39,249 nucleotides of DNA, taken from the IMG/VR virus record IMGVR_UViG_2869936548_000010, positions 1 through 39,249 of that record; one strand, 5' to 3'. This document shows positions 32,873 through 34,589 of the stretch, in pieces. The stretch's first letter is position 1; the number at the start of each line of letters is the position of its first letter. The notes under the pieces are model-generated. The model was not told where the DNA came from. It was given only the letters and a program-made list of their open reading frames with translations, and made no database searches. Made by a program: the position numbers and the translations under genes. This DNA comes from a virus (Duplodnaviria > Heunggongvirae > Uroviricota > Caudoviricetes).

Positions 32873-34589
32873 ATGACAGATTCAATAAATGCCAATGTTG
32901 TGGTAAGCATGCCTTCGCAACTATTCACTATGGCTCGTTCTTTTAAAGCCGTAGCCAATGGTAAAATTTATATTGGTAAAATTGACACTGACCCTGTAAA
33001 TCCTGAAAACCAGATTCAGGTTTATGTGGAGAACGAAGATGGTTATCACGTTCCTGTTTCTCAACCAATCATCATTAACGCTGCTGGTTATCCGGTATAT
33101 AACGGGCAGATTGCCAAATTTGTAACTGAGCAAGGCCATTCAATGGCTGTATATGATGCGTATGGTTCGCAACAGTTCTATTTTCCGAATTTGCTGAAGT
33201 ATGACCCTGAACAGCTTCTGCAGTTACTTCAATCTGATGAAGGGGCTACTTACATTGGCACTAATAGCGGGAAAAATCTTCAAGATGAGCTATTTGCAAT
33301 AAAAAATGAAATATATCAAGACCCGCTTACATCGTGGCCTTTCGGTGGAACATTAAAAATAAAGCAAGGGGTGTATGATGTTACCACTCCTCTGGTACTT
33401 AATTATGATGATTACCCTGCCGACTTTGTAGGTGCTCCGGGTGTCCGCTGTTTTTACTCAGGCGAGAACATGGCTGAGACAATACTGGAATGTAGAGCTA
33501 CTGATTTTAACGTAAAAATGCTAGGTGACGCAGCGTTTAACAGTCAGAGATTGGCTGCATATGACTACATCGGCAACATGACGCTGAAAGGGAATCCCGG
33601 AAGTTACGGTATGCTGGTGCAGAATAAAGCACATACTCGTCTTGAAAACATTGTTATCTGCCGCCACCCTGACGGGGAAGGGTTACGCACTGACTCGATG
33701 CTCACGAGCGACATGACGAACGTGTACTTGCAGAGTAATCGTATCGGTTGGCGTGCTACCAACTCCGTAAATCATTCTGAACTGAACGCTATAACTGCAA
33801 ATAGGCTTACGTGCAGTCAGAACAGTGAATGGGGTATCCTCGGGGACCGCTGGGGTGCTGGTACAACTATCAATAGCCTGACTTGTGAAGGAAATGGTAC
33901 TCAGGGGGATTCCAGTACAGGTGGTGCGCAATTAGCCATAAATGGCCTTAACGGTTCGTGCGCTTTGGTATTAAACAACCCATACTTTGAGGCTAATGCC
34001 GGGGGGGGCAGACCTTGCTATAGATAATACTGGGACGCGCCCTGTAACTGTGGTTATAAACGGTGGAAATTTTCATCGCGTGAGCAGTGCAAGATACACG
34101 CACACTAATATTCAAGTAACAAGCTCAGGTGGGGGAAAAGTTACAGTCATACTCAACGGCACAACGTTCCAGAGCGCAGGGGATTATCAGCCAAGTGCAG
34201 ATCGACCATACTGGATAACAGGAGCTAATTGCGAGGTAGTTGACATTGGGTGTGTTTTTACAGAAACAACCAGTAAGGCAACATCGGCTTCTGCATTGTC
34301 AGTCACACGCTCGGGAAAAATTAACGCCAATGGTAGTATCGACGTTGCTACTGGTGTTTCATCGGTTAACGTGGTTGCTACAGGTGTGTATGAGGTTAGC
34401 TTTTCTCATCCGCTCGCAGCAGTTGCTAGCGGTTATATTGTGCAGATAACACCTATATCTGCGCCTGATTCAGTTAGTTGTGATGTTACTTATATTGGCG
34501 TAGATACATTTAGGGTGACCCTGCGCAATACGCTTAGCGGAGCAGGAATCTCCAGTTCGTTTGCATTTAGCATTACCAGGCTACTATAA
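32873..34589 (+). pseudogene. Tailspike (P22 gp9-type head-binding domain plus divergent receptor-binding domain), split by a frameshift in a G8 run
   Basis: N-terminus [44 protein letters not shown] resembles P22 gp9; reading frame ends 34027, continues in another frame from 33999; junction is an 8-G run at 34001-34008. Confidence 0.8.

Follow-up and report, generated by a model that had tools for sequence, protein, structure and literature searches.

P22-like tailspikes, as described for P22 and Sf6 (gene 9/gp14) and the SfX/Sf101 lineage, combine a head-binding N-terminal domain (PF09008) with a parallel β-helix and a C-terminal β domain, and their gene follows gp16 and mnt/arc and precedes the O-antigen-modification genes and the attachment site. 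Phage Sf11 needs O-antigen, its receptor, and its gp13 spike is a trimer in the virion (PMC12724387). Genes altered at a run of a single base are known from several other systems. Homopolymer frameshift pseudogenes, found in decaying prophages and in Shigella, result from a single-base indel in a mononucleotide run, are inherited clonally and affect genes that the host can now do without. In E. coli, homopolymer runs act as exponential hot spots for indels, 8-bp G·C runs being outliers (PMC8510543). Among HSV thymidine kinase mutants, the addition of a G to a run of seven Gs is a 'savior' indel with compensatory frameshifting, in which low-level net +1 frameshifting gives trace amounts of active protein (PMC5009743). 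In receptor-binding genes of Campylobacter Fletchervirus phages, the length of a G tract decides whether the full protein is made, according to the citation of Sorensen et al. (2021, Cell Rep 35:109214) in PMC10877375.

The DNA analyzed here (39,249 nucleotides, referred to as the window) is identified from its sequence as a complete SfX-type, P22-like (Lederbergvirus) serotype-converting prophage of Shigella flexneri at tRNA-Thr(CGT). The assignment follows from identity to the 1993 SfX record L05001, to which the 3′ end of the tailspike gene and the adjoining DNA up to position 34,650 are 100% identical, and from an exact protein match to ADA72692.1 of the S. flexneri Xv strain 2002017. The 64-bp attL core (145–208, plus strand) overlaps the 3′ end of tRNA-Thr(CGT) at 115–190 and recurs as an exact direct repeat in the attR core (37,500–37,563, plus strand). 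The integrase gene lies at the left end of the prophage. At the right end, gp7, gp20, gp16, mnt/arc, an HNH endonuclease gene and the tailspike gene are followed on the opposite strand by the O-antigen glucosylation cassette (34,656–37,210, minus strand; gtrX 34,656–35,921, gtrB 35,934–36,851, gtrA 36,848–37,210) and then by attR. The cassette was recognized by the Pfam families Glycos_transf_2 and GtrA_DPMS_TM and by a 100% match to L05001, and it is the part of the prophage that is useful to the host. SfX-type prophages create new S. flexneri serotypes, which makes them relevant to vaccines and surveillance; the exact GtrX protein is present in 1,795 index blocks. The neighboring gtr loci of other S. 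flexneri strains are IS-riddled prophage remnants.

Compared with the intact phage IME10, the late genes of the window differ little in length; gp26 and gp20 are somewhat longer, and no late gene is truncated. Moreover, gtrA is joined to int across the att core in contigs from two strains that carry the same tailspike allele as the window. This attP-type junction suggests that the element still excises or sits in tandem.

The gene at 32,873–34,589 (plus strand), delimited by its ORFs, is a member of the P22/Sf6 tailspike family, all of whose testable defining features were found in it. The product begins with the same head-binding domain, PF09008 (residues 4–114, E = 1.2e-62, 209.6 bits against a cut-off of 24), and the N-terminal domain also matches those of Sf6 gp14 and P22 gp9 in the PDB. 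Residues 121–570 match PDB 9occ, the Sf11 tailspike gp13 (E = 4.9e-217), and the receptor-binding part is 72% identical to Sf11 gp13 (P0037) over 79% of its length, whereas it has no sequence relation to the receptor-binding parts of Sf6 or P22. Going only by homology to Sf11 gp13, the protein would be a putative trimer that binds or cleaves O-antigen. An AF2 model of an intact homolog (P0002, 85% identical, mean pLDDT 71.8) has short, repeating β strands at about residues 158–457 and a C-terminal β domain at 478–568, so the parallel β-helix and C-terminal domain of P22-like tailspikes are both present in the predicted model. Foldseek searches with the model returned the Sf6 (E = 3e-15) and P22 (E = 1e-10) tailspikes as top matches, with low TM-scores of up to 0.38. 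The gene also occupies the position expected for a P22-like tailspike: it closes the late operon, follows gp16 and mnt/arc, and lies beside the conversion genes and the att site. The preliminary description had called the gene a tailspike, which is supported by the PF09008 domain, the Sf11 gp13 match and the fold matches to the Sf6 and P22 tailspikes. It is the only tailspike gene of the prophage and, unlike those of P22 and Sf6, it is interrupted by a +1 G frameshift.

The interruption lies at a run of eight Gs, GGGGGGGG, at 34,001–34,008 (plus strand; G8), with C34000 and C34009 on either side; positions 33,990–34,020 read AGGCTAATGC C GGGGGGGG C AGACCTTGCT. The 5′ frame (32,873–34,027, plus strand) opens at ATG 32,873 and ends in GCC GGG GGG GGC AGA CCT TGC TAT AGA TAA, with the stop codon at 34,025–34,027. 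The remainder of the gene is in the +1 frame and stops at 34,587–34,589. In the ORF list it runs from TTG 33,987 and contains ATG 33,996, the latter giving a product of 197 amino acids (33,996–34,589, plus strand) that gene callers also predicted in assemblies with G8. When one G was deleted in silico, a single ORF of 571 amino acids plus stop (572 codons) was obtained. The length of the tract therefore switches the tailspike reading frame, seven Gs (G7) giving 571 amino acids and G8 giving 384. The split at an 8-G run with a stop at 34,027, and its repair to an ORF of about 572 codons by removal of one G, had been reported in the preliminary description and were confirmed in every detail.

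The 384-residue product comprises the head-binding domain and about two-thirds of the β-helix, followed by six aberrant residues (GRPCYR) and TAA. The 3′ frame encodes the last β-helix rungs and the C-terminal β domain. When intact (G7), the gene uses the run for two Gly codons and for base 1 of the Ala codon that follows (GCC GGG GGG GCA). The break falls at about residue 377, inside the β-helix and within an invariant 13-residue motif.

The G8 run is the longest homopolymer of the window, in which no other G or C run reaches 7 nucleotides. Nevertheless, its occurrence is not significant by composition: 0.30 such runs are expected per window, and at least one was present in 24 of 100 dinucleotide-preserving shuffles. 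Since the run is unremarkable in this respect, the argument rests on the homologs. As judged from these sequences, what goes beyond chance is that the run coincides exactly with the frame break, at a place where intact homologs of the gene have G7.

Ten tailspike genes linked to gtrX were fetched from S. flexneri genomes, and nine of these have G7 and a full-length ORF. The tenth (L022, CP020339) has G8 and is identical to the window. Two of the G7 genes, both from complete genomes (L017 and L018), have a receptor-binding part about 100% identical to that of the window, while some other gtrX-linked G7 tailspikes are only about 82% identical to it overall. The closest intact E. coli homolog, PapM-32-1, also has G7. 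More distant intact homologs lack the run and have GGTGGT (G3/10) or GGCGGT (Sf101) at the same Gly–Gly codons. The preliminary description had named intact relatives without a G run at this codon as evidence against its account; this holds in part, as G3/10 and Sf101 are such relatives, and those intact relatives that bear the tract have G7. On these comparisons, G7 is taken to be the ancestral, in-frame state. The records with G7 are L001, L011–L021, L023–L026, L040 and L041.

The exact repaired 571-residue product was found on 33 contigs of S. flexneri assemblies. G7 contigs with the intact product were reached via the gp16 allele; a search for them through the HNH endonuclease gene returned unrelated tailspikes only. 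Two of these prophage copies are near-isogenic with the window: L041 (AZOH01000153) over 10,401 aligned positions and L040 (JAQRWV01) over 9,640, the single difference in each being the G. Because these sister copies differ only by the G, the lesion postdates all other substitutions in this prophage DNA of about 10 kb.

The G8 allele was found in nine other assemblies from at least five accession series (CP001383 from strain 2002017, CP020339, LVIF01, LVIT01, LVIY01, AZOT01, AZPX01, AWOX01 and JAQRXL01), all with tailspike DNA 100% identical to the window (G8 records L004–L010, L022, L038, L039, L042 and L043). Of these, CP001383 and CP020339 are complete chromosomes, and the LVIF–LVJC series consists of Illumina MiSeq PE250 drafts (PMC4931504). 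The exact truncated product is present on 32 contigs and is identical to ADA72692.1, 'Tail spike protein [Shigella flexneri 2002017]'.

By their sequences, related and largely Chinese (Xv/4s) S. flexneri isolates are thus polymorphic for G7 and G8, and both alleles occur inside a single accession series. Such mixing fits a subclade marker and also fits repeated switching. Prophage SNPs were uninformative on single versus recurrent origin, since the copies are too alike (0–1 differences in 10 kb). One G8 assembly is a mosaic: in L006 (AWOX01), a 3.5-kb stretch that includes G8 is identical to the window and the flanks are about 1% divergent. For this pattern, either the mutated segment was later moved by recombination or G7 changed to G8 a second time, independently. 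No paper describing the G7/G8 polymorphism was found.

The lesion is of a well-known kind, the homopolymer frameshift pseudogene, as the frame is disrupted relative to intact orthologs and the disruption is inherited in several isolates. A slipped-strand +1 G frameshift (G7 to G8) that inactivated the SfX tailspike, as incipient prophage decay at a mutational hot spot, is the probable explanation of the locus. A pseudogenizing mutation had been one of three options in the preliminary description, and it is the one borne out by the relatives, in that G7 is in-frame in every intact relative that bears the tract and otherwise identical copies differ by one G. Slipped-strand mispairing in replication is the most likely cause and would have added a G to the G7 tract. 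Translation of the G8 allele is predicted to stop after 384 residues, within the parallel β-helix, and the truncated product would be missing the final rungs of the helix together with the C-terminal domain. With these parts lost, this genome by itself should give rise to particles devoid of functional tailspikes. Truncation inside the β-helix of the model thus points to loss of tailspike function.

The frameshift would presumably carry no cost for the host, since the host gains from gtrABX and not from phage infectivity. With no such cost, G8 could spread by hitch-hiking in a clonal lineage. Strain 2002017 (Chinese, Xv) and Chinese isolates of serotype 4s are among the related isolates polymorphic for the tract. 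Given that homopolymers are indel hot spots in E. coli, ordinary slippage mutation and hitch-hiking in a clonally expanding host would suffice. The spread of G8 may then represent the first visible step of prophage domestication, and, as a plain frameshift, the G7/G8 difference would mark the start of that process and provide a handy lineage marker. The ability of the epidemic Chinese Xv/4s-lineage prophage to spread gtrX would hinge on one base. As a 1-bp homopolymer change, the lesion can also revert.

The locus departs from typical homopolymer frameshift pseudogenes in that the rest of the prophage is intact-looking and apparently still excising, the lesion is polymorphic among near-identical copies, and the source strain was reported to release infectious phage (PMC3306764). 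SfX induced from strain 2002017 reportedly infected the serotype Y strain 036 and converted it to serotype X; strain 036_1a was not infected, which was scored as absence of plaques (PMC3306764). The genome of 2002017 (CP001383) carries G8. As a fully dead tailspike would give no infectious phage, reversion, a mixed culture or leakiness must be assumed, and the release of infectious SfX argues for some residual or restored tailspike function. Reversion or low-level frameshifting would explain it. With the former, G8 would occasionally revert to G7 in the course of induction, and the plaques would be those of revertants. Further observations count against decay, namely the absence of decay in the rest of the prophage, the attP-type junction in two G8 strains, and the presence of G8 in the mosaic L006. 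If the tract reverts or is decoded leakily, a seemingly dead prophage would still be a source of serotype conversion.

These observations leave some room for a reversible gate. The G7/G8 tract would then decide whether a serotype-converting prophage that is still active makes infectious phage. In the epidemic lineage, the OFF allele (G8) would be present in most lysogens, and frequent slippage to G7, or a leaky +1 shift, would free an infectious minority. This reading would explain both the infectious SfX from 2002017 and the identical G8 segment in L006 and, if true, would provide a homopolymer-controlled tailspike in an enterobacterial temperate phage. It is nevertheless considered unlikely.

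Leaky recoding of the G8 allele has a slim chance of being correct. A few ribosomes would shift +1 on the G run, or RNA polymerase would slip, and the full-length tailspike made would suffice for some particles to be infectious. This would account for infectious SfX from 2002017 in spite of its G8 genome (PMC3306764). At the site itself, a tRNA-Gly that re-paired +1, from one GGG to the GGG overlapping it, would restore exactly the wild-type A-G-G-A-D. The G run of HSV thymidine kinase is a precedent with the same G7-to-G8 lesion, and in Shigella, type III secretion genes such as mxiE make use of transcriptional slippage (PMC5009743). The HSV case differs in that it concerns a eukaryotic virus and ribosome under drug selection, while leakiness of the prophage gene is hypothetical. 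Moreover, all intact homologs are single-frame, so the two-frame arrangement is not conserved, and the truncated product keeps its head-binding domain and might compete for sites on the tail. The predicted fold of 33,985–34,110 gave no significant downstream RNA structure (z = −0.28). The sole Shine–Dalgarno (SD)-like element, GAGG at 33,989–33,992, lies 11 nt upstream of the P-site GGG. A spacing of 11 nt favors −1 and not +1 shifting, for which sites have a short spacing. In bacteria, transcriptional slippage is known for runs of A or T but is not known for runs of G. A programmed frameshift was rejected, as the site has neither a significant RNA structure nor a suitably spaced SD.

Evolved phase variation, the slipped-strand ON/OFF option of the preliminary description, is quite improbable. 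Here the G tract would be a contingency locus at which slipped-strand mispairing turns the receptor-binding protein ON (G7) or OFF (G8) at high frequency. Consistent with such a locus, a change in tract length toggles the frame, both states occur in otherwise identical prophages and in the same accession series, G8 is also found in the mosaic background of L006, and infectious SfX came from a strain with a G8 genome (PMC3306764). The Campylobacter phages offer a precedent, the likeness being one of form only (Sorensen et al. 2021, Cell Rep 35:109214, as cited in PMC10877375). Poly-G tracts also switch many surface genes of hosts in this way. In contrast to that system, only G7 and G8 occur here, the tract is not conserved across homologs, and it lies in the only tailspike gene of the phage. 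OFF would hence mean non-infectious particles, with no obvious benefit to the phage. The Campylobacter Fletchervirus tracts are longer and widely variable within populations, have a demonstrated role in diversification, and belong to phages whose hosts lack mismatch repair. Shigella and E. coli are proficient in mismatch repair, and a run of 7–8 bp mutates far more slowly than classical phase-variable tracts; both points count against phase variation.

The lengths of the tract seen in assemblies also tend to argue against an evolved switch. Among assemblies of near-identical prophage copies, two states were found, G7 and G8. The products predicted for G4, G5, G6, G9, G10 and G11 were absent, by exact look-up, from about 15 billion proteins. 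DNA scans allowing G6–G10 gave no match in metagenomes. In viral and genome collections they found G7 and no other length, chiefly in 3′ pieces of a related tailspike gene cut short by IS elements. All nine gtrX-linked G7 copies have kept G7 and the full ORF, including those in IS-riddled defective remnants that are free of selection. As G7 is constant even in remnants unable to make phage, the tract does not appear to be intrinsically unstable, which is indirect evidence, from sequence comparison, for its stability.

Conservation of the tract can be attributed to the segment around it. This segment is 92–100% identical in the G7 copies, and in the divergent alleles its identity is 92–96%, compared with 55–68% in the central part of the gene. 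Upkeep of the tract beyond shared ancestry was not seen across homologs, as the intact genes of G3/10 and Sf101 have GGTGGT and GGCGGT in its place.

The first option of the preliminary description was a homopolymer sequencing error, with G7 as the true sequence and the extra G as a miscall or assembly artifact. Homopolymer indels are a classic error of 454 and long-read platforms, and the intact and truncated products are about equally frequent on public contigs (33 versus 32). Nevertheless, an artifact is very improbable and is largely refuted by the recurrence of G8 in nine further, independent assemblies. As these include MiSeq PE250 drafts and two complete chromosomes, a platform-specific homopolymer error is ruled out. 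In addition, G7 and G8 are each reproducible inside the same series, which is unlike a systematic error.

Finally, a split but functional tailspike, in which the 384-residue N-terminal part and a separate 197-residue C-terminal piece assemble non-covalently, is scarcely credible: gene callers predict both pieces, and shortly before the break the 3′ frame has an ATG at 33,996 preceded by GAGG at a distance of 3 nt, but a 3-nt SD spacing is poor, the break lies inside the β-helix in an invariant motif and away from any domain boundary, none of the intact relatives is split, and continuous chains are required for the interdigitated trimers into which P22-type tailspikes fold.

Two further tailspike records were noted. 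L019 was called as broken, but its DNA is identical to that of the intact L026; the call reflects a gene-calling difference with no lesion and was discarded. L013 has G7 at the tract and has lost one G from the G5 run at 34,131–34,135, either because the gene has decayed independently at a second G run or through an assembly error. The GenBank annotation of the G8 gene lists two 'tail spike' fragments, which should be read as one gene.

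The locus AWOX01000024.1 (L006), aligned with 28.7–38.7 kb of the window, shows 116 mismatches in total. It is identical to the window over 32.25–35.75 kb, a stretch that spans the HNH endonuclease gene, the tailspike gene with its run of eight G residues (the G8 allele) and most of gtrX, and nearly all of the mismatches fall within gp20/gp16 (28.7–32.2 kb) and within the end of gtrX and gtrB (35.75–36.9 kb). Judged by this alignment, the locus is probably a recombination mosaic bearing the same G8 as the window.

In two draft assemblies with the G8 allele, gtrA was found to run through the 64-bp att core into the integrase gene int on a single contig: LVIT01000048.1 (L007/L043), with the junction at 8820–8883, and JAQRXL010000051.1 (L042). 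The counterparts of the core in the window lie at 145–208 and 37500–37563. The join is an attP-type junction. A contig connecting gtrA to int across the core points either to phage DNA that had excised and circularised or to a tandem prophage in both G8 cultures.

Copies with seven G residues (G7) were also compared. JAQRWV010000195.1 (L040) has an in-frame 6-bp deletion (AGCCAG) relative to the window, at window 24366–24371, and this is the sole further difference seen in that copy. IMGVR_UViG_2531839195_000016 (L013) has a related full-length tailspike gene with G7 in the main tract. Its second G run, corresponding to window 34131–34135, is short by one (G5 to G4), and the reading frame is shifted at ...VTSSGG; the change is either an independent lesion or a record error. 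Several S. flexneri genomes and one record titled E. coli (CP182556 and CP178302 are examples from this set) retain only the final 710 bp of a 98.6%-identical tailspike gene (window equivalent 33881–34590; L011, L012 and L014–L016), with G7, next to an IS element and a different gtr gene. These remnants are older, IS-truncated leftovers of a related prophage.

The receptor-binding part of the tailspike (residues 121–570; window 33121–34589) is about 72% identical to the siphophage Sf11 tailspike gp13. Many 585-aa phage proteins of the 'pectate lyase superfamily', which have a different N-terminal adaptor (PF18668), match it as well. From these matches, one presumed O-antigen-binding module is common to podophage and siphophage tails, an occurrence already pointed out (PMC12724387).

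Between mnt/arc and the tailspike gene lies an HNH_3-type endonuclease gene (window 32276–32815, minus strand). In P22-like prophages of E. coli, the gene for an identical 169-aa protein immediately precedes many tailspike genes that are unrelated to one another (464 index blocks), whereas PapM-32-1, G3/10 and Sf101 lack it. The gene resembles a mobile, homing-type element associated with the tailspike junction.

Just beyond attR, window 37560–39249 contains, on the minus strand, a 154-aa integrase fragment and IS-type transposase ORFs of 272 and 114 aa (rve and HTH_Tnp_1 families in the matching loci). They are probably what is left of an element that occupied this tRNA site earlier.
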